A stretch of 64,000 nt of DNA from an uncultured virus (IMG/VR IMGVR_UViG_3300045815_000012) (IMGVR_UViG_3300045815_000012); one strand, 5' to 3'. Counted from the stretch's first letter, positions 1-49,312 are shown. A program made the numbers and translations. The notes: generated by a model from the sequence alone, not told the origin.

Positions 1-287
1 CCTAAAATAAAAATTAAGAAACAGTATCGAATGACTAAATATGCAACTACTATCATATATAATTTATCATGATAGCCTTTACTAATAGGTAATTCGTATA
101 AAAATAGAATATAAATGTTTGGTAACAACATATTGTAAATAATATTTATTCCTGAAGTTGTTTCATCTTCGCTGAAAGAAAAACTGTCATACCTATCTTT
201 TAAAACTGCCAAATTTGAAATAGGTTTCCCTAATATTTGCATGAAAAAAAACAGTATTAGACCATTTACAGAAATAAAAAAAAGCAT
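1..287 (-). CDS. Host membrane protein, 5' part (runs off window)
   Basis: ATG at 287 with GGAGGGG RBS; open hydrophobic frame MLFFISVNGLILFFFMQILG... to the window edge; not in the ORF track. Confidence 0.6.
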   Translation of the reverse strand, partial: MLFFISVNGLILFFFMQILGKPISNLAVLKDRYDSFSFSEDETTSGINIIYNMLLPNIYILFLYELPISKGYHDKLYMIVVAYLVIRYCFLIFIL

Positions 288-1352: not shown

Positions 1353-1502
1353 ATGTCTGAGAAAAAAATTAAGAAAATTCGAAAGAAAATCCACGAAGAT
1401 TTAACTATTTTCCGTGGCAAAACTCCTCTATGGAAAAGAATCACTCTTTGGATTATCTTAGGTATTTTGTTACTTGATATTATTTTGAAATATGTTGTTT
1501 AG
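1353..1502 (+). CDS. 49-aa single-TM peptide
   Basis: MSEKKIKKIRKK...RITLWIILGILLLDIILKYVV*; AAGGTG RBS; terminator follows. Confidence 0.6.
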   Translation: MSEKKIKKIRKKIHEDLTIFRGKTPLWKRITLWIILGILLLDIILKYVV

Positions 1503-1508
1503 TATAAT

Positions 1509-1548
1509 AGTCCCCTCTGCAATCGCTAAAGTTGTAGAGGGGACTTTT
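1509..1548 (+). terminator. Intrinsic terminator
   Basis: AGTCCCCTCTGCAA...TTGTAGAGGGGACT then a T run. Confidence 0.75.
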
Positions 1549-1585
1549 GCGTGCTCAGCTTTTTCATTCTTAAGAATCTGTTCGC

Positions 1586-1615
1586 TTTACATTTCAGAAC
1601 ATATGTTCGTATAAT
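1586..1615 (+). promoter_or_regulatory. Sigma-A promoter with LexA (SOS) box
   Basis: TTTACA...TATAAT with AGAACATATGTTCG (GAAC-N4-GTTC) at 1596-1609. Confidence 0.85.
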
Positions 1616-1635
1616 ATCACCAAGAGGTGAATGCT

Positions 1636-2031
1636 ATGATCTACGATGACGAGTCAGCTATCAAACTGTTTTTAGAAGCTAAAAAAGTTTACGAGGACCG
1701 GAATATGCTTAAATGGATCGGATTTTACCTGTCCGACCAAACAGCAGCAATCAATAAGGATGTAACTGAACGGTCTAAGGTCAATAATCAAAAACCGTTA
1801 ATGCAAAGTGAAGAAATCGAAAATGTCTTAAACGAAGCTAGACTAAAAAGCAAACCTGTCTCTGTTCAGTTAGAAGCCCTCAATGAAAATGCACAGTATT
1901 ACGATGATGTTATAGGAATGATTCGAGGTTACGATGAGTTAGGAATTTACATAGGTGATCAAAAAGTACATTACGATGAAATTAGAAATGTTGAGGTTTA
2001 CAACTGGAAAAAATGGAGTGAACTGAAATGA
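1636..2031 (+). CDS. YolD-like protein
   Basis: DRNMLKWIGFYLSDQT motif; SOS-box promoter. Confidence 0.7.
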   Translation: MIYDDESAIKLFLEAKKVYEDRNMLKWIGFYLSDQTAAINKDVTERSKVNNQKPLMQSEEIENVLNEARLKSKPVSVQLEALNENAQYYDDVIGMIRGYDELGIYIGDQKVHYDEIRNVEVYNWKKWSELK

Positions 2032-2240
2032 ATCCTATCCTCTCTTATCATCTAGGATTGATAACATTCGATCGTCTCCAAGTCTTATTGTGGGATTTCG
2101 GTCCTAACGCTATAGATGAAATCGGAGAACGATGCTTTGCTTTCTACTGCAGCAAAGCCAACGGGCTTCATAATTTTGATTACTACATTTTAAAGTATGG
2201 GAGTGGTTTAAATGATAAGCATGAATGGTATTGTGAGTAG
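2028..2240 (+). CDS. Hypothetical protein
   Basis: ATGA-coupled to the yolD-like gene; conserved in copy 2. Confidence 0.65.
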   Translation: MNPILSYHLGLITFDRLQVLLWDFGPNAIDEIGERCFAFYCSKANGLHNFDYYILKYGSGLNDKHEWYCE

Positions 2241-2466
2241 CGTAAAGATTCTAAAGTATTCGGAACGTCCCCTCGTCTATTTTAAGCTTGATGATACTAG
2301 CTGCTTGATTGCTGGCCACTCGTTGAATTTTCTTGCAGATGTAGAGGATGGAATGCGGATCGCTGTTGCTGGGGAGTACAATAGCAGGAAACAGTTTGTG
2401 GTGAAGAAGTATGCGGTTATTGGCAAGACGAAGATTATGATGGAGTTTGAAATGATGAGAATATAA
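2212..2466 (+). CDS. Small beta-rich, possibly OB-fold, protein
   Basis: GGAG RBS; conserved in copy 2; fold is inferred. Confidence 0.65.
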   Translation: MISMNGIVSSVKILKYSERPLVYFKLDDTSCLIAGHSLNFLADVEDGMRIAVAGEYNSRKQFVVKKYAVIGKTKIMMEFEMMRI

Positions 2467-2890
2467 AAACCCACTCTCTAGTAGGATAAAGAGTGGGCAA
2501 AAGAAAGCGAGAGTGGACTACTCTCTACTTAATAGTTTATCACTTTTAGGTTTCAACGCAATAAAAAAACAGGCACCTTTCGCCAGGGTGCCTGCCCCTC
2601 CTGTTAGTTGAGGTTTGAGGATACTTAGTGATTGTATAATAATATAAGGCGGTTACAATAGCAAATAAAACGATGTCTGAAATAAAAAGGAGCACCCGAT
2701 TAATCGAGTGCACGCAGATAAAATGAAAGAAAAGTTTCTAGGATACTTGCATTATAAGTTAAAGCGCTTACATTAGCAAGGAATAAGTAGTACAAATAAA
2801 AAGAGCACCCGATTACTCGAATGCTCCTTATAGAAAATAAAGATTTTCTTGGATTGGTTTTATTATACAATGTAACGCTTACATGCGCAA
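2465..2890 (-). ncRNA. Tandem array of four putative sRNA transcription units
   Basis: Each unit has a TTGCnn -35, 16-17 bp spacer, -10, ~60-70 nt RNA and GC hairpin with T run. RNAs at ~2465-2528, 2563-2629, 2684-2745, 2798-2856. Confidence 0.7.
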
Positions 2891-2925
2891 TAGAAAAGAA
2901 GACCTTAGCGTGAGCTAGAGGCCTT

Positions 2926-3570
2926 TTAATCTAATAGTGATCTAATATGATCCTTGCAAGAATAAGCATGCCCGAGAAACGTCCTTTCTAACATTTGGTC
3001 TGCAGTTAAACCGCCATGCCCGGTAACTAAACAAAGATGATATACATCGCAAAACATCAAAATATAAGTAGTAATCTCCTCATCGCTTTCATCAATTTTT
3101 AAATATATCCGAAATGGGTTTTGCTTTTTTTCTCTTTCATAGTATGGAACACCATCTACCTTAAAGATAGTATTGTTATCCTCGCTTAATAACTCTTTAT
3201 GACCGTATAGTTTTAATACATCCCGTAGCCTCTTAACATTAAACTTATTAAATGCAACCGACTCAGTATTATCGCAAACATACTCAATATTATTAACAAT
3301 CTCATTCAACGTTTTTTTAGTTGATTCACTAACATTTTCTTTATCTACAAAATTTGTAAATTTTAAAGGAAAGTTTGTTTTAGATTCTAGAAAAAGCGAG
3401 GAGATAGTAATTACCGCTCTTTTTTCTGGTCTAGTAAGAAAAATTTCTCCACCGTTTTTTAATTTTGATTTGATATTAATAGTTGAAAGAACTTCTAACT
3501 TTTCTTGTATTTGCTTTTCTCTTGTCTTTATATTCTTTTTATTTTGAATGTCAAAATTAAAAGACTTCAA
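2926..3570 (-). CDS. Putative toxin partner of the Panacea antitoxin
   Basis: Overlaps and follows the DUF4065 gene; basic 214-aa protein. Confidence 0.55.
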   Translation of the reverse strand: MKSFNFDIQNKKNIKTREKQIQEKLEVLSTINIKSKLKNGGEIFLTRPEKRAVITISSLFLESKTNFPLKFTNFVDKENVSESTKKTLNEIVNNIEYVCDNTESVAFNKFNVKRLRDVLKLYGHKELLSEDNNTIFKVDGVPYYEREKKQNPFRIYLKIDESDEEITTYILMFCDVYHLCLVTGHGGLTADQMLERTFLGHAYSCKDHIRSLLD

Positions 3571-4063
3571 GTTTATATTCCTCTATAATGGATTCTTTAT
3601 TCATCTCTCCTTGACCATCATCGAACGCCCTTTTCCATTCCAAGTCTTCATGTGTTCGCTCAACCAATGTGAAATCACCCATTTCATCTGTCTGATGGAT
3701 AACTTGTATCAAAAGCTCTTTTATAGAATCTTCTTGGTCATTCGCAGGTTGCCATATTTCAGAAGATTCAATAACATCCTGATGATATTTATTATTTTTG
3801 TAAATTTCTCTTATGACTGGACCGTACTGCCATGCCTCAAAATTTTCTTTAAATAGATGTTTGGGATAATCAGCACTACCTTCAAAATGTTTTTCTTCAA
3901 CATTTTCATTATTTAATAGTCCATATGTTGCCCCGTAAAATGCGAATAAAAAATATAATGTCTTTTGAAGTCGTAACGGAGTCATTTTTCTAATAGAGTT
4001 GTCACATACAAATTTAGCTAAGACATTAATGTTATCAAATACAACTTCTTGGTTTTCATCCAT
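3557..4063 (-). CDS. Panacea (DUF4065/SocA/GepA-like) antitoxin
   Basis: TPLRLQKTLYF...FEAWQYGPV...THEDLEW signature. Confidence 0.9.
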   Translation of the reverse strand: MDENQEVVFDNINVLAKFVCDNSIRKMTPLRLQKTLYFLFAFYGATYGLLNNENVEEKHFEGSADYPKHLFKENFEAWQYGPVIREIYKNNKYHQDVIESSEIWQPANDQEDSIKELLIQVIHQTDEMGDFTLVERTHEDLEWKRAFDDGQGEMNKESIIEEYKLEVF

Positions 4064-4152
4064 ACTAACCCCTCCTTCTATTTAACATCTTATCAGTGAA
4101 TTTACCTATAGTAAATGTTTTGCAACAAACATTATATTTAAATTAGAATGTA

Positions 4153-4224
4153 TGTACCCCGCAGGCCTCGAACCCGCATCTTCCGATATGAACCGGAGTA
4201 TTCTACCAATTGAACTAGGGATAC
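4153..4224 (-). tRNA. tRNA-Met(CAT)-like gene with aberrant anticodon arm (probable pseudo-tRNA)
   Basis: GTATCCC/GGGGTAC acceptor stem, D-loop TGGTA, GGTTCGA T-loop; 8-nt loop GTTCATAT; no encoded CCA. Confidence 0.7.
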
Positions 4225-4270
4225 TTTTAAAAGAACTATGATTATTTTTTCTTCATGTTACAATATAAAA

Positions 4271-4390
4271 AGACGGAACGTCAGATTTCCCCACAGTCCA
4301 CTTCCCCAAGTAACTGTATCTGACGTTCCCTTTTTTATGGGCGAGTGACTTCCCATTACAATAAACTTACCCATAACCCGTTTTCTTTGC
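4271..4390 (+). ncRNA. Putative sRNA with UCCC(C) loop motifs
   Basis: TGnTACAAT extended -10; GGAACGTCAGAT/ATCTGACGTTCC stem enclosing two TTCCCC; second hairpin TTATGGG/CCCATAA. Confidence 0.55.
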
Positions 4391-4423
4391 AAATGATACA
4401 CTCATGACAAAGTGATACACTAC

Positions 4424-4512
4424 AGAAAGAAACAACCAGCCCGCACACGACTGGTTGCCGATCAAGATGAAACTTAGTTATGAAAAAGAAGTAAGTTCTG
4501 GCAAAACTTACA
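4424..4512 (-). ncRNA. Putative csRNA-like sRNA
   Basis: TTGCAA-17-TATTAT promoter; 5' hairpin GTAAGTT/AACTTAC; TTCTTTTTCAT; CAACCAG/CTGGTTG terminator. Confidence 0.65.
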
Positions 4513-4576
4513 CATTCATAATAGCTCTTTTGTTAATATCTTGCAAGCGCATTCTCGCCTAAACTCTTTTTTAATG

Positions 4577-5614
4577 TCACTTAATATCGTGATACCAACG
4601 AGTCTCTGTGAAGTCTTGGAAGCCTCCCGCTGTATTCCCCTTTGGATCATTTGTTGCACGAAGTAGAACGATTACAGAATGGCCCTTGAATTGCGCTAAA
4701 TCAAATTCTGTTTTAAATCCAACCTGGTCATAAGATAATCCAAATGCTTTTTTAACATCTGGACGGGCAATTGGTTTGACTTCTTTTCTGGCAAGCTCCT
4801 TATTTTTTACTCGATCCATAACGATAATAAACTCATGCTTTGAAGCAGTTGTATGCCAACCTTCCACTACTAATTTATTACCTACTGGACCAAAACGATC
4901 CAGATGAGCTTTGTTTTGCGGGAATTTAGGATCTTGCATAATCGGGAAGTGTTGCCCTGCGGTTGTTGGATCAACTGTTTTGTTTGGCTTAGCTGGTTGT
5001 GGCGCTGGACTAGGTTTATTTGTTTGAGAAGGATTTGCGTACTTATTCCATTGTTCTTTAGTAATATAGAACTTACTACGATCTACGTCAGCAGCACTAT
5101 ACTGCCAACCAATCATACTTTTCCACGGTGAAATATTATAGATAAATTCTGGAGCGTTCCAATCCCGTTGAGTGTTTGTCGGATAACCTGCAAACCATAA
5201 AGCACAATCATTCACTAGGTTTAAGCAACGATCAATATCTTGACGATTGCCGTAAAGCACACACCAGACACCTGTTTTTTCATGTACGCGATTGACGAAT
5301 TGACGTGCCCAATTCGTATTATTGTAAGATGCGTTTTGATATTCTTCCCAGTCTAAAATCAAAATGGCTTCACCAATATATCCTTTAATATTTGCTAGAA
5401 AATAATCGGCTTCTGAAATGGGACTTCCACCTCCGGCGTAATGATATACCCCGAGTAATAATCCATGCTGTTTTGCTAATTGATACTGAGCATCACACTT
5501 AGGATTAATATACCCTGTTCCCTGTGTAGCTTTAACAATACAAGCATCTGCCCCAGCAGTGATTGCTTGTTGAACTGTTTGATGTGAAGCCACGTCTACT
5601 ACATTTAATACCAT
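4577..5614 (-). CDS. Endolysin, GH25 muramidase with C-terminal binding domain
   Basis: VDVASHQ, KATQG, GVYHY and LDWE motifs; Pro-rich linker. Confidence 0.92.
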   Translation of the reverse strand: MVLNVVDVASHQTVQQAITAGADACIVKATQGTGYINPKCDAQYQLAKQHGLLLGVYHYAGGGSPISEADYFLANIKGYIGEAILILDWEEYQNASYNNTNWARQFVNRVHEKTGVWCVLYGNRQDIDRCLNLVNDCALWFAGYPTNTQRDWNAPEFIYNISPWKSMIGWQYSAADVDRSKFYITKEQWNKYANPSQTNKPSPAPQPAKPNKTVDPTTAGQHFPIMQDPKFPQNKAHLDRFGPVGNKLVVEGWHTTASKHEFIIVMDRVKNKELARKEVKPIARPDVKKAFGLSYDQVGFKTEFDLAQFKGHSVIVLLRATNDPKGNTAGGFQDFTETRWYHDIK

Positions 5615-27029: not shown

Positions 27030-27126
27030 TTGTCCTGTAAGCGTTACAATGATATAATTTCTACGTATCATCCTTTTTAAAAATTTGTTTTTCATTTGGC
27101 CGCTGCGGAAACAGCGGTCTATTTTT
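27030..27126 (+). ncRNA. cre-controlled csRNA-like sRNA unit
   Basis: TTGTCC-17-TATAAT with TGTAAGCGTTACA in the spacer; ATCCTTTT...TTTTCAT; GGCCGCTG/CAGCGGTC terminator. Confidence 0.7.
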
Positions 27127-27399
27127 GTGTGCAAAATAAAAAGACCGCCTAAGCGATCTTGATTATGTATATCGTCCCCGCTTGGGACACATCGTTGAGA
27201 GGTGTACGGGGTTCTATTAATAATTAAAACTCTCACCTCAGAACGCATCTGCCTAAACAGGAATGAGAGTATTGACATTAAATTAAGCAACCTACTCCAT
27301 TATGGAACCCACTGTTTATCCATGACTGGCAGATAGGAATGCTCGGTTGCTATTTGTGGGCGCTTATGTCCCGATGTTTCTTGGGCACCTTCGTCCCTA

Positions 27400-27474
27400 T
27401 TGACGTGGCCGGGATCGAACCGACCTCATTTCCAACTCTGACAGTCAGATGCATCACCATGATGCTACACGTCA
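27400..27474 (-). tRNA. Degenerate tRNA-like element (GTC/Asp-like, enlarged anticodon loop)
   Basis: TGACGTG/CACGTCA acceptor, GCAT/ATGC D-stem, GTCGG-TTCGATC-CCGGC T-arm. Confidence 0.6.
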
Positions 27475-27614
27475 ACTGGAGGAGCTACCTCCTGCAAGCT
27501 TGCTGTTGAGATTGACTAATCGGCAAGACTATCTTAAATCCTAGAGTCTACTAGTTACCTTTATCAGCTCGCTGACGATACTGATGTGGTCACATTTAAG
27601 TTACCTTTCGTCTA

Positions 27615-27703
27615 AGTCACTGGAGTGGCACCGCCCCACTCATGGTTGCCTAAGCATTAACCTCGCACGCATGCAACACGTCTTCTACTTCCGCCACAGT
27701 GAC
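27615..27703 (-). pseudogene. Highly degenerate class II tRNA-like element
   Basis: GTCACTG/CAGTGAC acceptor, TGGCGGAA D-arm start, long variable arm; T and anticodon loops non-canonical. Confidence 0.45.
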
Positions 27704-27914
27704 ATAAAGACGGCATGCTCAATGTAGAAATCATTATTTCATGCCGTCAATTGTTTGCCTACTCTGTTTCCGCAAAGTGGCAGTGTAGTCAAAAAGAGAA
27801 TAACCCACCAAGCTAGACGTTTGTATGTTAAGAGGTATAAGAAGAAACTTCATGCCAATAAAGTTAATTTGAGTCGTCTGTTTGATGGATTATTTAAAAC
27901 TCTCTGATAATACA

Positions 27915-27960
27915 ATTATATAGGGGTTGACAGTGACAAAACTACCCACTTTTGTGTCAT
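27915..27960 (-). promoter_or_regulatory. Probable late promoter and activator site
   Basis: TATAAT at 27920-27915 preceded by TGACAcAAA...TTTTGTCA inverted repeat, right after the activator gene. Confidence 0.55.
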
Positions 27961-27961
27961 T

Positions 27962-28375
27962 TTAATTGATTTCCCCAATTCGTCTTCCAAAATCAAGTAA
28001 AATTTTCTGCCGCAATCGATAAATAGTCTTTTGAGCATATCCATGTTTTTGACCAAAACTTACCCAATCCATCCAACTATCTTCACCCCAGTATTTAAGC
28101 TCCATCAGTTTTCTAATATCAGCGCTCTGACTTTCTAAAGTCTCCCTGATACACTTCTTCCAAAGCTGCCGATTGACAATATACGGATCAGATAACTCTT
28201 TAATTACTTGCTGTTCAACAGGATTGCTACGAATGTTCCCTTTACCGCCGCCGATGTTCTCATCAGCCTCTTTCATTTTTAGTTCTTCTTTTCGAATCGC
28301 GATTTCTCTATTGTAATTCGGATAATTCGCAAACTTCCTGTCTAATTCGTTTATGAGATAATCATTTCTACTCAA
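27962..28375 (-). CDS. RinA/ArpU-family (DUF722-like) late transcription activator
   Basis: DENIGGGK...LKYW with C-terminal HTH; last gene of the early operon. Confidence 0.85.
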   Translation of the reverse strand: MSRNDYLINELDRKFANYPNYNREIAIRKEELKMKEADENIGGGKGNIRSNPVEQQVIKELSDPYIVNRQLWKKCIRETLESQSADIRKLMELKYWGEDSWMDWVSFGQKHGYAQKTIYRLRQKILLDFGRRIGEIN

Positions 28376-42245: not shown

Positions 42246-42905
42246 TTGATGGCGACAGATAAATTAAATGAAGATCAATTAAAAGTTGCAGCAATAATGA
42301 AACAAGCAAGAAAAGAAAAGAAGTTAAGCCAACTGGAAATAGCTCCTAAATTGGGGCTTAATAATGCTACACTATCTAAATACGAAAATGGGAAACTGCC
42401 ATTTCCAGATTCAATTTTGATTAAACTATCAAACCTGTACAGTATTGATTACTATTCTTTACCAGGAGTTGTTAAACCTAGGTTGATAGGTTCTAGAGAA
42501 ACCATGCCTTTAATAGGAACCATAGTTGCGGGCAAACCTTTAGTCACCTACTCAAATCCCGAAGAAATCCAAGTGCCCGCAGAGATTAAGGAAAATTATC
42601 CAAATGGCTATCTTCTCGAAACATCGGGTGAATCGATGAATAGGTTATTTCCAGACGGACAATTATTAGTAATTGATCCTGATGCAGAGATCGAATCCGG
42701 TTTAGTTTATGCAGTCAGAATAAACGGAGATGAGACGACTGTAAAAAGAGTTATATGCGGGAAAAATCTCTTAGTGCTACAGCCTGATTCTTATGATGAT
42801 GGTTTCAAACCATGGATGATAGATGACCCAATTACGCTTAGTGAGGTTTGCATAGAAGGAAAAGTTGTGTGGGATATGGCTAATCCTAATAAAAGAAAAT
42901 ATTAA
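42246..42905 (+). CDS. cI: CI repressor (HTH plus S24 peptidase)
   Basis: LSKYENG HTH; VAG cleavage site; GESM; TVKR. Confidence 0.92.
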   Translation: MMATDKLNEDQLKVAAIMKQARKEKKLSQLEIAPKLGLNNATLSKYENGKLPFPDSILIKLSNLYSIDYYSLPGVVKPRLIGSRETMPLIGTIVAGKPLVTYSNPEEIQVPAEIKENYPNGYLLETSGESMNRLFPDGQLLVIDPDAEIESGLVYAVRINGDETTVKRVICGKNLLVLQPDSYDDGFKPWMIDDPITLSEVCIEGKVVWDMANPNKRKY

Positions 42906-43609: not shown

Positions 43610-44746
43610 ATGTGGATCGAAGAATTACCGAACGGGAAATACAAATATTCTGAACGATACATTGACCCATACACAGAAAAAAGCAGAAAAGTTTCCATCA
43701 CACTTAACAGCAAATCTAATCAAGCTAAGAAGCAAGCAAACATAGAACTTCAAGAAAAAATTGATAAGAAGATCGAAGAAAAAAATCAAATCAAGATTAC
43801 ACTTGGCGAGCTATTAGATGCGTGGTGGAATCAGCATAAGGTTTCTATTCGCCAATCATCACAAGTTAATTATGAAAAACTTTTGAAATACATACGAAAG
43901 AATATTAACACTGCTGCGGTGGTGCGAAATACAGACACAAGATTTTATCAAGATTTCATAAATGAGTTACCTCAATCTTACGAATATAAGAAGAAGTTTC
44001 GAAGTGTGCTAAAAATGGCGCTTGATTATGCAGTGGATATGGAAATGATCAAAATTAATCCTATTAACAGGGCGAAAGTTCCTAAACCAGCTTTAACAAA
44101 AGAAACTTATGAAAGAGTGGAAGATAAGTATTTAGAAGAAGAAGAAATCAACAAGCTATTGAACGTCTATTACAGCACGTTTCAGAGCGTCCATCACGGA
44201 AGGTTAGCTGAGTTCATGTATTTAACTGGACTGCGTGCAGGCGAAGCTATAAGCCTCACAATTGATGATTACAATCCGAATAGCCAAACTATAAAGGTTA
44301 TTGGTACTTTAGATTATTCGGACGGCTATAAAAATGCAAAAAAAGAGATGCCTAAGACCCTAGCATCATATCGTGAAATTGATCTATCTAATCGAGCGAT
44401 TGAAATAATCGACGAATTGATTTTGGAGAATAAGTTAAAATTCAAGGGTAAAACTCCTTATCTCTTTATTGGTAAGACTGGCAAGCCGATTCAAATCAAT
44501 GCATTTAATAACTCGCTAAAGACTATGAATGACAAGCTTGGTAAAGATGCTATCAAAAAGAAAATGTCTAGCCATATTTTTAGACACTCTCACATCTCGC
44601 TACTTGCTGAATTGAACATACCTGTAAAAGCAATCATGGAACGTGTAGGACACTCCGACATGGAAACAACAATGAAGATATACACCCATGTAACCAAGAA
44701 GACAAAGGCTAGTATTGTTGAAAAACTCAATGCTAAGGGTAAGTAG
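43610..44746 (+). CDS. int: Tyrosine integrase
   Basis: TGLRAGE, HIFRHSH, RVGH, IYTH. Confidence 0.97.
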   Translation: MWIEELPNGKYKYSERYIDPYTEKSRKVSITLNSKSNQAKKQANIELQEKIDKKIEEKNQIKITLGELLDAWWNQHKVSIRQSSQVNYEKLLKYIRKNINTAAVVRNTDTRFYQDFINELPQSYEYKKKFRSVLKMALDYAVDMEMIKINPINRAKVPKPALTKETYERVEDKYLEEEEINKLLNVYYSTFQSVHHGRLAEFMYLTGLRAGEAISLTIDDYNPNSQTIKVIGTLDYSDGYKNAKKEMPKTLASYREIDLSNRAIEIIDELILENKLKFKGKTPYLFIGKTGKPIQINAFNNSLKTMNDKLGKDAIKKKMSSHIFRHSHISLLAELNIPVKAIMERVGHSDMETTMKIYTHVTKKTKASIVEKLNAKGK

Positions 44747-45049: not shown

Positions 45050-45271
45050 ATGGATATGAGGAAATCATTTATTATCGACTATCTATCTGAAGAAAACATA
45101 GAACTTTTTAACAGCGCTTGTGAGGAAGACCAATTTATGGCCGAGATCGACATGTTACTTATTCTTAGAAAGCATAATAAGCTTAAGTGCGACAGAGAGA
45201 TTGTTACAAATCAAAATGGTGCTACCAAATTAAGATATATCATTGAATTAGAGGCAGATGATTATAAATGA
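45050..45271 (+). CDS. 73-aa hypothetical protein, first gene of the SOS operon (copy 2 only)
   Basis: GAGGTG RBS before ATG at 45050. Confidence 0.7.
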   Translation: MDMRKSFIIDYLSEENIELFNSACEEDQFMAEIDMLLILRKHNKLKCDREIVTNQNGATKLRYIIELEADDYK

Positions 45272-45663
45272 TCTACGATGACGAGTCAGCTATCAAACTG
45301 TTTTTAGAAGCTAAAAAAGTTTACGAGGACCGGAATATGCTTAAATGGATCGGATTTTACCTATCCGACCAAACAGCAGCAATCAATAAGGATGTAACCG
45401 AACGGTCTAAGGTCAATAATCAAAAACCGTTAATGCAGAGTGAAGAAATCGAAAAGGTCTTAAACGAAGCTAGACTAAAAAGCAAACCTGTCTCTGTTCA
45501 GTTAGAAGCCCTCAATGAAAATGCACAGTATTACGATGATGTTATAGGAATGATTCGAGGTTACGATGAGTTAGGAATTTACATAGGTGATCAAAAAGTA
45601 CATTACGATGAAATTAGAAATGTTGAGGTTTACAACTGGAAAAAATGGAGTGAACTGAAATGA
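45268..45663 (+). CDS. YolD-like protein
   Basis: One residue different from 1636-2031. Confidence 0.7.
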   Translation: MIYDDESAIKLFLEAKKVYEDRNMLKWIGFYLSDQTAAINKDVTERSKVNNQKPLMQSEEIEKVLNEARLKSKPVSVQLEALNENAQYYDDVIGMIRGYDELGIYIGDQKVHYDEIRNVEVYNWKKWSELK

Positions 45664-45872
45664 ATCCTATCTTCTCTTATCATCTAGGATTGATAACATT
45701 CGATCGTCTCCAAGTCTTATTGTGGGATTTCGGTCCTAACGCTATAGATGAAATCGGAGAACGATGCTTTGCTTTCTACTGCAGCAAAGCTAATGGTCTT
45801 CATAATTTTGATTACTACATACTAAAATACGGGAGTGGTTTAAATGCAAAGTCTGAATGGTATTGTGAGTAG
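45660..45872 (+). CDS. Hypothetical protein
   Basis: Paralog of 2028-2240. Confidence 0.65.
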   Translation: MNPIFSYHLGLITFDRLQVLLWDFGPNAIDEIGERCFAFYCSKANGLHNFDYYILKYGSGLNAKSEWYCE

Positions 45873-46098
45873 CGTAAAGATTCTAAAGTATTCTGAACGT
45901 CCCCTCGTCTATTTTAAGCTTGATGATACTAGCTGCTTGATTGCTGGTCACTCGTTGAATTTTCTTGCAGATGTAGAGGATGGAATGCGGATCGCTGTTG
46001 CTGGGGAGTACAATAGTAGGAAACAGTTCGTGGTGAAGAAGTATGCGGTGGTAGGCATGACGAAGATTATGATGGAGTTTGAGATGATGAGAATATAA
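45844..46098 (+). CDS. Small beta-rich protein
   Basis: Paralog of 2212-2466. Confidence 0.65.
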   Translation: MQSLNGIVSSVKILKYSERPLVYFKLDDTSCLIAGHSLNFLADVEDGMRIAVAGEYNSRKQFVVKKYAVVGMTKIMMEFEMMRI

Positions 46099-46410
46099 AA
46101 ACCCACTCTCTAGTAAGGGTAAAGAGTGGGCAAAAGAAAGTGAGAGTGGACTACTCTCTACTTAATAGTTTATCACTTTTAGGTTTCAGTGCAATAAAAA
46201 ACAGGCACCTTTCGCCAGGGTGCCTGCCCTCCCTAAAAGGGAGTAGAAATGGATAGTTTCTGATTGTTAGTTTAGCATAAAACGTTTTCAGCAACAAGAA
46301 TTATACTATCTTAACACAAAAAGAACACCCGATTTCTCGAATGCTCCTTGCAGAAAATAAAGATTTTCTTGGATTGATGCTATTATACAATGTAACGCTT
46401 ACATGCGCAA
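46097..46410 (-). ncRNA. Tandem array of three putative sRNA units
   Basis: Same architecture as 2465-2890; RNAs at ~46097-46161, 46196-46263, 46318-46376. Confidence 0.7.
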
Positions 46411-46445
46411 TAGAAAAGAAGACCTTAGCGTGAGCTAGAGGCCTT

Positions 46446-47090
46446 TTAATCTAATAGTGATCTAATATGATCCTTGCAAGAATAAGCATGCCCGAGAAAC
46501 GTCCTTTCTAACATTTGGTCTGCAGTTAAACCGCCATGCCCGGTAACTAAACAAAGATGATATACATCGCAAAACATCAAAATATAAGTAGTAATCTCCT
46601 CATCGCTTTCATCAATTTTTAAATATATCCGAAATGGGTTTTGCTTTTTTTCTCTTTCATAGTATGGAACACCATCTACCTTAAAGATAGTATTGTTATC
46701 CTCGCTTAATAACTCTTTATGACCGTATAGTTTTAATACATCCCGTAGCCTCTTAACATTAAACTTATTAAATGCAACCGACTCAGTATTATCGCAAACA
46801 TACTCAATATTATTAACAATCTCATTCAACGTTTTTTTAGTTGATTCACTAACATTTTCTTTATCTACAAAATTTGTAAATTTTAAAGGAAAGTTTGTTT
46901 TAGATTCTAGAAAAAGCGAGGAGATAGTAATTACCGCTCTTTTTTCTGGTCTAGTAAGAAAAATTTCTCCACCGTTTTTTAATTTTGATTTGATATTAAT
47001 AGTTGAAAGAACTTCTAACTTTTCTTGTATTTGCTTTTCTCTTGTCTTTATATTCTTTTTATTTTGAATGTCAAAATTAAAAGACTTCAA
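46446..47090 (-). CDS. Putative toxin (identical copy)
   Basis: Protein identical to 2926-3570. Confidence 0.55.
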   Translation of the reverse strand: MKSFNFDIQNKKNIKTREKQIQEKLEVLSTINIKSKLKNGGEIFLTRPEKRAVITISSLFLESKTNFPLKFTNFVDKENVSESTKKTLNEIVNNIEYVCDNTESVAFNKFNVKRLRDVLKLYGHKELLSEDNNTIFKVDGVPYYEREKKQNPFRIYLKIDESDEEITTYILMFCDVYHLCLVTGHGGLTADQMLERTFLGHAYSCKDHIRSLLD

Positions 47091-47583
47091 GTTTATATTC
47101 CTCTATAATGGATTCTTTATTCATCTCTCCTTGACCATCATCGAACGCCCTTTTCCATTCCAAGTCTTCATGTGTTCGCTCAACCAATGTGAAATCACCC
47201 ATTTCATCTGTCTGATGGATAACTTGTATCAAAAGCTCTTTTATAGAATCTTCTTGGTCATTCGCAGGTTGCCATATTTCAGAAGATTCAATAACATCCT
47301 GATGATATTTATTATTTTTGTAAATTTCTCTTATGACTGGACCGTACTGCCATGCCTCAAAATTTTCTTTAAATAGATGTTTGGGATAATCAGCACTACC
47401 TTCAAAATGTTTTTCTTCAACATTTTCATTATTTAATAGTCCATATGTTGCCCCGTAAAATGCGAATAAAAAATATAATGTCTTTTGAAGTCGTAACGGA
47501 GTCATTTTTCTAATAGAGTTGTCACATACAAATTTAGCTAAGACATTAATGTTATCAAATACAACTTCTTGGTTTTCATCCAT
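47077..47583 (-). CDS. Panacea (DUF4065) antitoxin (identical copy)
   Basis: Protein identical to 3557-4063. Confidence 0.9.
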   Translation of the reverse strand: MDENQEVVFDNINVLAKFVCDNSIRKMTPLRLQKTLYFLFAFYGATYGLLNNENVEEKHFEGSADYPKHLFKENFEAWQYGPVIREIYKNNKYHQDVIESSEIWQPANDQEDSIKELLIQVIHQTDEMGDFTLVERTHEDLEWKRAFDDGQGEMNKESIIEEYKLEVF

Positions 47584-47672
47584 ACTAACCCCTCCTTCTA
47601 TTTAACATCTTATCAGTGAATTTACCTATAGTAAATGTTTTGCAACAAACATTATATTTAAATTAGAATGTA

Positions 47673-47744
47673 TGTACCCCGCAGGCCTCGAACCCGCATC
47701 TTCCGATATGAACCGGAGTATTCTACCAATTGAACTAGGGATAC
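47673..47744 (-). tRNA. tRNA-Met-like pseudo-tRNA (copy 2)
   Basis: Identical to 4153-4224. Confidence 0.7.
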
Positions 47745-47790
47745 TTTTAAAAGAACTATGATTATTTTTTCTTCATGTTACAATATAAAA

Positions 47791-48032
47791 AGACGGAACG
47801 TCAGATTTCCCCACAGTCCACTTCCCCAAGTAACTGTATCTGACGTTCCCTTTTTTATGGGCGAGTGACTTCCCATTACAATAAACTTACCCATAACCCG
47901 TTTTCTTTGCAAATGATACACTCATGACAAAGTGATACACTACAGAAAGAAACAACCAGCCCGCACACGACTGGTTGCCGATCAAGATGAAACTTAGTTA
48001 TGAAAAAGAAGTAAGTTCTGGCAAAACTTACA
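47791..48032. ncRNA. Copies of the UCCC sRNA (+) and csRNA-like sRNA (-)
   Basis: Identical to 4271-4512. Confidence 0.55.
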
Positions 48033-48096
48033 CATTCATAATAGCTCTTTTGTTAATATCTTGCAAGCGCATTCTCGTCTAAACTCTTTTTTAATG

Positions 48097-49104
48097 TCAC
48101 TTAATATCGTGATACCAACGTGTTTCGTAGAAGTCTTGATGACCTCCACTTACATCACCTTTAGCGTCATTTGTAGCACGTGTCATCACAATGACTGACT
48201 TACCACTAAAATGCTTAGCATTGAAATTCACATCATAACCGACATTCCCAGTCGTCCGATAAGCAGCATTCACATCTGGTCTTGCTACTACAGGTGCTTT
48301 CTGGCGTGCCAATTCTTTGCCAGTTGTCCGATCAATAATAAATACATATTGATACTTGTAATTAGCGATATGCCACCCACGCGCCTTCAAGGTGTTCCCG
48401 ATTCTCCCCCATTGATCAACATGAGCATGGTTTCCTTTGCCATCGTTCATTACAGAATATCCTGATCCTGCGGTAGTTGGATCTACAGGTTTGCTTGGAG
48501 TCGGTGCAGGTTTGTTCTCGTTTGATTCAAAACCATACTTCACATCATGTGCAAATTGCGCTTGTGAGACACCGTGACTTGCTAAGTAGCCATACGGGTC
48601 CGTATGATCGCCCCACCAATTCGTAGAAATGTATTGGTGACTGATGACCCCTTTGCCGCCTACTGGACTGTCTACAGTAAGAGGAATATTAAACCGTTTC
48701 GCACTGTCACGAATTAATTCAATGTAAACTTTATAGTTCTGTTTAAAGAGCGCTGGATTGGGCGTTGCTTGCAATTCAATTTGTACTGGCGAATTCGCAT
48801 TGGCATAAGAGCCGCCTCCGTATTGCACATAGCCGGGTTCACCAACTTGGTAGACAATACCGTCACCAACAATATAGCTAGTGTAGGCATTCATCCAATT
48901 GCGCTTCATAAAGGTAGCTTCGTTACGTCCTGTTGCGCTAGGATTTGCAGTATCGTGCGCCACAATATAATTTGGATTTGCTCTAATTGGACTGCCTTCA
49001 TTCGCCCCTAAATTGAACTCGTTATTGATCGTGTAAGCAAACCCATTAATAGGCAATAAAAAAAGAGCCAGTAAAAGGCTCAGTAACGTAATTTTCTTTT
49101 TCAT
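48097..49104 (-). CDS. Endolysin, amidase_2 with signal peptide
   Basis: MKKKITLL...GFA signal; AHDTAN, QIEL, SH, DHTDP. Confidence 0.92.
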   Translation of the reverse strand: MKKKITLLSLLLALFLLPINGFAYTINNEFNLGANEGSPIRANPNYIVAHDTANPSATGRNEATFMKRNWMNAYTSYIVGDGIVYQVGEPGYVQYGGGSYANANSPVQIELQATPNPALFKQNYKVYIELIRDSAKRFNIPLTVDSPVGGKGVISHQYISTNWWGDHTDPYGYLASHGVSQAQFAHDVKYGFESNENKPAPTPSKPVDPTTAGSGYSVMNDGKGNHAHVDQWGRIGNTLKARGWHIANYKYQYVFIIDRTTGKELARQKAPVVARPDVNAAYRTTGNVGYDVNFNAKHFSGKSVIVMTRATNDAKGDVSGGHQDFYETRWYHDIK

Positions 49105-49114
49105 GTGATTCCTC

Positions 49115-49312
49115 CTATTTTTTCGAATTGTATGCTGAGACACCTGTAACTACTCCTAAAAAAGTAGCTACAGCATTAATTGTTAGCACAGTCATATCCG
49201 CGCCACCCCAACCGTATGCCTTTCCAAGTGTGCCAACTAAAACAGATGCAGCTGGCAACACTGTGAGAACCGCCCATTTAATAATTTGGTAATACTTGTC
49301 CGGTAAAATCAT
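49115..49312 (-). CDS. Holin
   Basis: MILPDKYYQIIKW; two TM segments. Confidence 0.85.
   Translation of the reverse strand: MILPDKYYQIIKWAVLTVLPAASVLVGTLGKAYGWGGADMTVLTINAVATFLGVVTGVSAYNSKK

Follow-up and report, generated by a model that had tools for sequence, protein, structure and literature searches.

A tandem array of predicted small-RNA cassettes with a common promoter box in temperate phages of the Enterococcus avium group

Four head-to-tail cassettes in an intergenic region

The window analyzed here is the whole 64,000-nucleotide stretch of DNA from the uncultured virus IMGVR_UViG_3300045815_000012 (IMG/VR), and our subject is an array on its minus strand at 2464-2890. Read directly, the array consists of four head-to-tail cassettes (units 1 to 4), each made of a -35 element TTGnnn, a spacer of 16-17 nt, a -10 element, an RNA, and an intrinsic terminator. 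It is intergenic, between the convergent open reading frames (ORFs) 2926-3570 (-) and 2212-2466 (+). The -35 elements start 111, 115, and 103 bp apart (range, 103-115), and the spacers of units 1-4 measure 17, 17, 17, and 16 nt. Each predicted RNA is ~60-67 nt long and lacks a conserved ORF, with start codons on the minus strand found only within terminator stems. The units are composed as follows.

2796..2890, minus strand: unit 1 (class I, type A1); -35 TTGCGC at 2890-2885, -10 TATAAT at 2867-2862
2883-2871, minus strand: box of unit 1, TGTAAGCGTTACA, inside the 17-nt spacer
Unit 1 RNA, minus strand: predicted, ~60 nt, starting near AAUCCAAGAAAAUC, with a weak AU hairpin and a terminator at 2829-2800 followed by a U-run
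2684..2779, minus strand: unit 2 (class I, type B); -35 TTGCTA at 2779-2774, box TGTAAGCGCTTTA in the spacer, -10 TATAAT at 2756-2751
Unit 2 RNA, minus strand: predicted, ~62 nt, 5' end GUAUCCUAGAAACUUUUCUUUCAU, terminator at 2711-2692
2563..2664, minus strand: unit 3 (class II, type C); -35 TTGCTA at 2664-2659, box TGTAACCGCCTTA in the spacer, -10 TATTAT at 2641-2636
Unit 3 RNA, minus strand: predicted, ~67 nt, containing ACUAAGUAUCCUCAAACCUC, with internal CCUC/GAGG pairing and a terminator at 2596-2570 followed by U7
2464..2561, minus strand: unit 4 (class III, type D); -35 TTGCGT at 2561-2556, 16-nt spacer with a degenerate box, TGAAACCTAAAAG
Unit 4 -10, minus strand: TGaTAAACT (a TG-extended TAAACT), ending at 2534
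Unit 4 RNA, minus strand: predicted, ~64 nt, with stem-loop A at 2509-2525, a CU-rich linker GCUUUCUUUU, and a terminator at 2498-2469 whose loop contains UUAUCCUACU

These cassettes had been described from the sequence in an original prediction, and all that it listed (four minus-strand cassettes, all four -35 and all four -10 elements, three boxes, and a quoted RNA string) is present as claimed. Its terminators and the lack of an ORF in its predicted transcripts are likewise borne out by the terminator scan, the folds, and the ORF comparison. A consensus scan of 1500-4500 returned 7 terminator-like sites compared with 1.8 +/- 1.4 in shuffled sequence, and five of its rows fall within the array; the terminator of unit 3 was missed because its loop exceeds 8 nt, although it does fold. 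Whole-RNA folds of units 1-4 gave z-scores of -5.5, -2.9, -1.5, and -4.9, with strong terminators throughout and an energy of -20.6 kcal/mol for unit 1. A short motif, ATCC, recurs in all four units: in units 1-3 it lies close to the predicted 5' end, and in unit 4 it is part of the terminator loop. Relative to the -10 element, AUCC starts after 4-7 nt in class I, at the extreme 5' end of the RNA, after 13-14 nt in class II, and within the terminator loop in class III.

Unit classes and coding potential

TRF found no period of ~110 bp in the array, so that the units form a repeated architecture and not a sequence-level tandem repeat. A repeat search picked up local similarity only, with 89% identity across 27 nt between the terminators of units 1 and 2 and 81% identity across 16 nt between the 5' ends of units 2 and 3. 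A covariance model, R1, matches unit 1 at 83.7 bits and unit 2 at 62.2 bits, and the array therefore holds at least two homologous genes; units 3 and 4 are not homologous to units 1 and 2. Classified by sequence, the predicted RNAs fall into at least three unrelated classes, I (the siblings, units 1 and 2), II (unit 3), and III (unit 4).

Three ORFs cross the array, at 2546-2713 (-), 2700-2870 (-), and 2821-2913 (+), and span promoters and terminators. None of these frames is kept in the second copy of the array described below or in relatives, and no small ORF is conserved there on either strand. Very small peptides from either strand, for example a type I toxin-like peptide with the RNAs as its antisense partners, would nevertheless find candidates on the plus strand, namely, a 30-aa ATG ORF in unit 1 (2821-2913) and a 17-codon frame in unit 2, both reading ..FLG.. 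across the ATCC region. The frames are not kept in homologous units (unit A2 of locus L003 has a stop inside the frame), no Shine-Dalgarno sequence lies at a workable distance, and the promoter and terminator signals all face the opposite way; on these grounds plus-strand peptides were rejected. The minus-strand RNAs lack a start codon outside the terminator stems, and we consider a peptide product of either strand very improbable.

Toxin-antitoxin systems with an RNA component were also considered. A type I system was rejected since there is no conserved small toxin ORF, adjacent or overlapping, on either strand, and a type III (ToxI-like) system was rejected since there is no sequence-level tandem repeat, every unit has its own promoter, and arrays are also found without a neighboring toxin-antitoxin-like pair.

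A second array and a distal cassette in tandem prophages

The window comprises a tandem pair of temperate prophages whose genes are on the minus strand. Genes of prophage 1 specify a GH25 endolysin (4577-5614), a holin, a terminase, a cI-like repressor (42246-42905, +), and an integrase (43610-44746, +); prophage 2 begins with an amidase endolysin (48097-49143) and extends past the end of the window. With lysin, holin, cI-like repressor, and integrase identified and the array lying downstream of the lysin gene, the array is phage-borne, as had been claimed. A module of ~3 kb follows the lysin gene in both prophages (1636-4600 and 45268-48120; offsets, 43632 and 43520). In the order of transcription it contains a tRNA-like element, a Panacea-domain (SocA-like) antitoxin gene with a 214-aa ORF, the array, and the convergent plus-strand ORFs of 134, 70, and 84 aa. 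By their sequences, the antitoxin gene and the 214-aa ORF are a candidate PanA-PanT toxin-antitoxin pair, whose toxin would be of no known family. The array occupies the usual site of lysogenic-conversion genes, between converging transcription units. Three further features belong to the array or resemble its units.

46097..46410, minus strand: copy B of the array, in prophage 2; three units (A1, C', and D); 79.2 bits
27030..27125, plus strand: cassette E; -35 TTGTCC, 17-nt spacer, TG-extended TATAAT, terminator at 27098-27119
2893..2926, minus strand: terminator-like hairpin, 3' of the upstream 214-aa ORF

Copy B lacks unit 2, and its unit 3 is replaced by a diverged class II unit, C', with box TGAAAACGTTTTA, a -10 element TGcTAAACT, and a fold z-score of -3.2. 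Cassette E carries in its promoter spacer, at 27036-27048 (+), a box identical to that of unit 1, the sole further copy of this exact 13-mer in the window. Its RNA, predicted at ~55-60 nt, contains GUAUCAUCCUUUUU and has a fold z-score of -2.4. The cassette lies in the gap that separates an ArpU-like activator gene from the packaging genes, in an orientation that opposes the flanking phage genes, and it is kept in 13 IMG/VR loci with 2 sequence variants. The hairpin at 2893..2926 is found before unit 1 in every array, regardless of the upstream gene, and its stem shows a compensating change among relatives (AAGACC..GGTCTT versus AAGATC..GATCTT).

Arrays in related prophages

Conservation of the unit architecture in related phages had been named beforehand as a test of the original prediction, and the architecture is conserved in related enterococcal prophages. 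The first three pattern scans of IMG/VR gave 37 loci, of which 16, on 10 contigs, have the array region in common; the remaining 21 are chance matches, all from one degenerate 16-mer pattern. Every one of the 16 loci returned by a scan that combined the box with the -10 element is an array, and these loci bring in six more contigs, for a total of 16 IMG/VR contigs. A relative of the 84-aa ORF is encoded at 29 Enterococcus genome loci, and 8 of these have class I units, in 7 named species: E. avium (two loci), E. raffinosus, E. dispar, E. hailinensis, E. asini, E. timonensis, and E. xiangfangensis. E. avium ATCC 14025 has one array of five units and one of two (loci L038 and L047). In metagenomes, arrays occur at 9 of 64 loci, and these 64 loci revealed no new unit types. 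The nearest virus record (G001) is without an array, and a blastn search of the INPHARED phages matched one record, in the upstream ORF only.

Arrays consist of 2 to 5 units, and there are about 12 unit types in total, namely, A1, A2, A3, B, F, and G of class I, C and C' of class II, D and D' of class III, cassette E, and one single type in locus L024. The upstream neighbor varies: some arrays follow a PanT-like ORF, others the gene of a long coiled-coil protein, and others come straight after the tRNA-like element. Since both unit number and upstream neighbor vary, the array behaves as a module of its own. In E. avium, the tRNA-like element stands directly before the array.

Constraint on the RNA sequence

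Comparison of eight distinct three-unit arrays separates what is kept from what drifts. The 24-nt 5' stretch of unit A1, AATCCAAGAAAATCTTTATTTTCT, is invariant in all eight (24/24 columns), as is the 5' stretch of C', whereas variation affects 4 of the 6 columns between the -10 element and the invariant stretch and also the loops, the terminator arms, and the spacers between units. An invariant 5' stretch beside variable flanks puts the start of the RNA immediately ahead of AUCC and points to constraint acting on the RNA sequence itself. In an E. avium-type relative, unit 3 differs between the -10 element and ACTAAGTATCC and is conserved from ACTAAGTATCC onward. All 12 pairs of the class I terminator are kept, 3 of them with a compensatory change. 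The one divergent variant of unit 4 (L077), folded alone, has different stems in the same two-hairpin layout, with loop UUCCUACU; as a single sequence it is anecdotal.

These comparisons bear on whether the cassettes are functionless relics, that is, promoter-leader-terminator shells of lost accessory genes (morons) multiplied by recombination between similar promoters and terminators. Changes in unit number by whole units would fit such an origin, as would the narrow distribution, the low diversity, and the splitting of some arrays by an insert of ~430 bp that carries a small ORF on the other strand (L002 and L024). Yet every copy, across 7 host species, has its promoters, terminators, and 5' RNA stretches intact beside varying flanks; no gene remnants lie between promoter and terminator; and the same design recurs at an unrelated locus as cassette E. 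We regard relics as an improbable explanation. The insert separates unit A1 from the unit that follows (about 1060-1480 in L002), and its opposite-strand ORF, of ~70 aa, has the N-terminus MKASEFLKRL.

A common box in the promoter spacers

All five promoter types of the window have TGWAA 0-2 nt after the -35 element, most of them as TGWAA(C/G)CG. On both strands of the window, TGWAASCG occurs at 9 sites against 6.9 expected, and 5 of the 9 lie inside cassette spacers; many units are paralogous, so that these sites are not independent. The box accompanies RNAs of unrelated classes, at offsets from the -35 element that differ by 0-2 nt between unit types, which argues that it is operator-like and more than an inherited spacer. 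Because one such box is common to all promoters of the window, a single DNA-binding repressor could switch the whole set, cassette E included.

The original prediction took the boxes of three spacers for sites of the catabolite-responsive element (cre) type, bound by CcpA. The strings are present and correspond to the left half of cre, with a weak fit to the consensus as a whole. We take the cre consensus to be the 14-mer TGWAANCGNTNWCA or, in a looser form, WTGNAANCGNWNNCW. TGWAAnCG, from the left half of this consensus, is found in 3 of the 4 array boxes. Within one mismatch of the 14-mer there is only 1 of the 4 boxes, that of unit 2, and the window has 5 such matches against 6.3 expected. 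Within one mismatch of the looser form are the boxes of units 1 and 2, and this pattern is not enriched in the window either (34 versus 38 expected). The clean palindromic boxes TGTAAGCGTTACA, TGTAACCGTTACA, and TGAAACCGTTTCA are 13-mers, one base below the length of cre.

In four related host genomes, the 14-mer is itself hardly enriched (61 matches versus 50 for the control), and consensus counting therefore discriminates poorly and cannot decide the question of CcpA. The 13-mer box has 10 matches in these genomes, 5 of them within arrays, compared with 2 for the control pattern. One match, in E. avium (L101, G002:C1:148319-148331), is TGAAACCGTTTCA and lies ~30 nt upstream of an ORF that begins METTQTNTAKKQLLMKWRQRIGYGVSDLACNLIWQ and by eye resembles a sugar:cation symporter; it may be a host operator that the phage box imitates. 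The cI/cro region holds no further copy of the box in the window. From sequence, CcpA as the regulator acting through the box is a possibility that we hold with more doubt than confidence, and another LacI-type protein or a phage factor is at least as likely a repressor.

RNA-library contigs and possible read-through at the array

Metatranscriptomic runs that contain the stretch number 24, and four RNA libraries were examined as contigs. The array is covered in 4/4 libraries, by a single bridging contig in 3/4. The array together with PanA/PanT had a contig depth of 121.8 versus 6-8 for lysin and tail genes in X1, of 1578.7 versus 143 in X4, and of 160.5 versus 34.7 in X8, where one tail contig reached 127.9. 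Contig breaks coincide with the differences between copies A and B. Contig depth cannot rank the parts of the locus, and we therefore draw no conclusion from it on the expression of small RNAs.

Contigs that bridge the array and its neighboring genes also count in favor of another reading, a cis-acting buffer between convergent operons. Stacked promoters and terminators with their short RNAs might stop or degrade read-through, either because the RNAs are perfect antisense only to read-through transcripts or by transcriptional interference, and the PanA/PanT operon could read through in the opposite direction. The location suits this role, as converging transcription units always flank the array and unit 4 directly adjoins the stop codon of the 84-aa ORF that runs toward it. 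The plus-strand operon of 134, 70, and 84 aa is without a U-run terminator of its own and could run into the array; after the unit 4 hairpin, the plus strand reads CAAAAG. However, one bidirectional terminator would be sufficient, and many relatives of the 84-aa gene have just that (21 of the 29 genome loci are without class I units). Moreover, a buffer does not account for the invariance of the 5' RNA sequences, for the common operator, or for cassette E at its distant locus, and the array of locus L083 has a different downstream neighbor. We consider a cis-acting buffer unlikely.

Relation to known small RNAs

At gathering thresholds, Rfam gave two tRNA-like matches in the window, both outside the array, and at E values up to 10 it gave six matches at chance level, the best being PyrR with 20 bits against a gathering score of 54. 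The comparison with Rfam that had been proposed for the array RNAs thus yields no matching family. In the four host genomes, R1 found no chromosomal copy: all nine matches at E<1e-7 lie in prophage arrays, and of seven weaker matches the five inspected are plain terminators.

Tandem sibling small RNAs are a known kind of gene arrangement, the CiaR-controlled csRNAs of streptococci being multicopy and partly tandem (PMC4211561). The csRNAs resemble the array in both respects and were the source of the earlier idea that its RNAs mask Shine-Dalgarno sequences. The CiaR repeat motif, which we take to be TTTAAG-N5-TTTAAG, has nine matches in the window with up to two mismatches, none of them within the array, and no Rfam csRNA match was found with E up to 10. 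In the array RNAs, CAU lies 3' of UCCU, which is the wrong order to cover the Shine-Dalgarno sequence and the AUG of one mRNA collinearly, in contrast to the csRNAs.

There is a close likeness in layout to LhrC1-4 of Listeria monocytogenes, which are encoded in one intergenic region and combine a stem-loop with a single-stranded stretch and a terminator, their CU-rich unpaired motifs pairing with AG-rich ribosome-binding sites (PMC13350326). The array likewise places several small RNAs in one intergenic region, and the fold of unit 4 has exactly the LhrC layout. LhrC is described as chromosomal, in near-identical copies, and controlled by LisR (PMC5880928), whereas the array is phage-borne, with three unrelated classes of RNAs of ~60-67 nt and the motif AUCC(U). 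The Rfam search with E up to 10 gave no LhrC match.

Control through cre has a precedent in RsaI of Staphylococcus aureus, a CcpA-repressed small RNA with a cre in its promoter region that is shut off by glucose (10.1101/278127). RsaI, by contrast, is one chromosomal gene, and its cre spans -45/-30, while here the box lies within the -35/-10 spacer; the array boxes mostly lack the right half of cre or are one base short and are cre-like by sequence only. The Pas family of E. coli consists of prophage-encoded base-pairing small RNAs that vary in copy number and sequence between strains (10.64898/2026.05.13.724894). Pas RNAs share with the array their carriage by prophages and differ in their Gram-negative hosts; the abstract of that report describes no head-to-tail arrays with a common operator, and there is no sequence relation.

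Our literature search, in which subscription journals were outside the scope, found no paper on such an array in Enterococcus phages. The statement that no such array had been described was overstated all the same, given the tandem siblings (PMC4211561; LhrC1-4, PMC13350326) and the CcpA-repressed small RNA with a cre (RsaI, 10.1101/278127). What we rate as new here is the predicted RNA families and their variation on the theme of sibling small RNAs.

Favored reading and the evidence against it

Because the array resembles in its design the CU-rich sibling small RNAs of Firmicutes, we favor trans-acting, seed-bearing prophage small RNAs. As judged from the sequence comparisons, the array is probably a block of independently transcribed, trans-acting, sibling-type small-RNA genes under a shared operator, a reading to which we give a probability of roughly 0.55. 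In temperate siphophages of the Enterococcus avium group, the units would be accessory genes that follow the lysin gene. Host sigma-A polymerase would read each unit from its own promoter to its own intrinsic terminator to give RNAs of ~60-67 nt, and each RNA would expose a conserved, CU- or U-rich stretch containing AUCC, at its extreme 5' end or in a loop. By analogy with LhrC, we infer that this stretch is a seed that pairs in trans with AG-rich ribosome-binding regions of mRNAs. Transcription as discrete RNAs, base pairing in trans, and repression through the box are each inferred.

Several observations weigh against this reading. Only two of the four promoters (units 2 and 3) pass a 4-of-6 rule for the -35 element; units 1 and 4 were not listed by the promoter scan because only 3 of 6 positions match TTGACA, although unit 1 has a perfect -10 element and unit 4 a TG-extended one. 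Two variant units of L024 are without the box. Diversity is low, with some 12 unit types and many arrays near-identical across species, and covariation support is thin as a result. The RNA-library contigs carry no strand, ends, or levels, and DNA can occur in RNA libraries; in X2, moreover, the contig with units 2-4 has a depth of 15.6 versus 288.8 for the PanA/PanT contig.

The search for targets adds to this list. For the silencing of host mRNAs such as those of transporters or phage receptors, which the original prediction proposed, the host searches, crude as they were, gave nothing above control. Within the phage, the best exact complementarity is 14 nt, AT-rich, on a noncoding strand, and not above shuffles, and for none of 6 RNAs did the duplex energies with 65 phage translation-start regions improve on the best of 30 shuffles. 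When the units were compared with the four host genomes by BLAST, only short AT-rich matches appeared, the two best being same-sense or promoter look-alikes, and the seed complement TAGGATACTT is not enriched in these genomes (35 versus 29 for the control).

That no mRNA target was found in the phage and the four host genomes would suit RNAs that bind protein or act as decoys, for example a sponge for a host RNA-binding protein or small RNA, or a device for counter-defense or superinfection exclusion, with AUCC as the recognition site. A short AUCC motif common to otherwise unrelated RNAs fits such a role, as do the internal pairs of SD-like and anti-SD-like sequence (SD, Shine-Dalgarno) in units 3 and C' and the position of the array among accessory genes, beside a Panacea-type antitoxin gene. 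Nothing, however, points to a partner: PADLOC gave no match of convincing score, and arrays occur both with and without the PanA/PanT pair, which is beside some and absent beside others. The units have no matches like those of a multicopy repeat array in the four related host genomes, which weighs somewhat against mimicry of CRISPR repeats in those genomes. We judge decoy RNAs to be quite unlikely.

The favored reading of trans-acting small RNAs can be extended to a phage-delivered row of riboregulators, with up to five small-RNA genes of three classes and a distal sixth under one operator, in which a host signal, possibly carbon status via CcpA, would release RNAs directed against ribosome-binding sites that reprogram host translation in lysogeny; in this full form we consider it rather unlikely. 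Prophage accessory genes are usually conceived as proteins. If the extended reading is true, small-RNA arrays would be lysogenic-conversion cargo, like toxins and defense genes, and a coregulated, conserved block of small RNAs would show that Gram-positive temperate phages can also rewire their hosts posttranscriptionally. It would also add RNA families for the Enterococcus avium group, about whose RNA regulators little is known. The system is compact, and its common box offers a simple handle for finding the regulator.

Neighboring features of the prophages

The two prophages share the ~3-kb module even though one has a GH25 lysin and the other an amidase. The module's left edge coincides with the 5' end of the 134/131-aa ORF, beside the integrase end of prophage 1, and may mark the attachment site. 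Just downstream of each lysin gene lies the tRNA-like element (4153-4224, -, and 47673-47744, -), which matches the Rfam tRNA model at 40.2 bits; ARAGORN names no anticodon for it ("ca"), and the loop in relatives is UUCAUAU. At 2926-4063 (-), the Panacea/SocA-like antitoxin gene (168 aa; PF13274, 39 bits) overlaps the 214-aa ORF, which has no Pfam, PHROG, or NCBIfam match.

Around cassette E, ~0.9 kb (27100-27960) is without a convincing ORF, between the ArpU-like activator gene (27962-28375) and the packaging genes. Within it ARAGORN calls a "tRNA-SeC" at 27399-27475 (-), with no report from Rfam at the gathering threshold.

At the end of the prophage, 1627-2466 (+) holds the three overlapping small ORFs of 134, 70, and 84 aa, of which only the first has a PHROG, with function unassigned. 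Relatives of the 84-aa ORF mark prophage ends at 29 Enterococcus genome loci and 64 metagenome loci.

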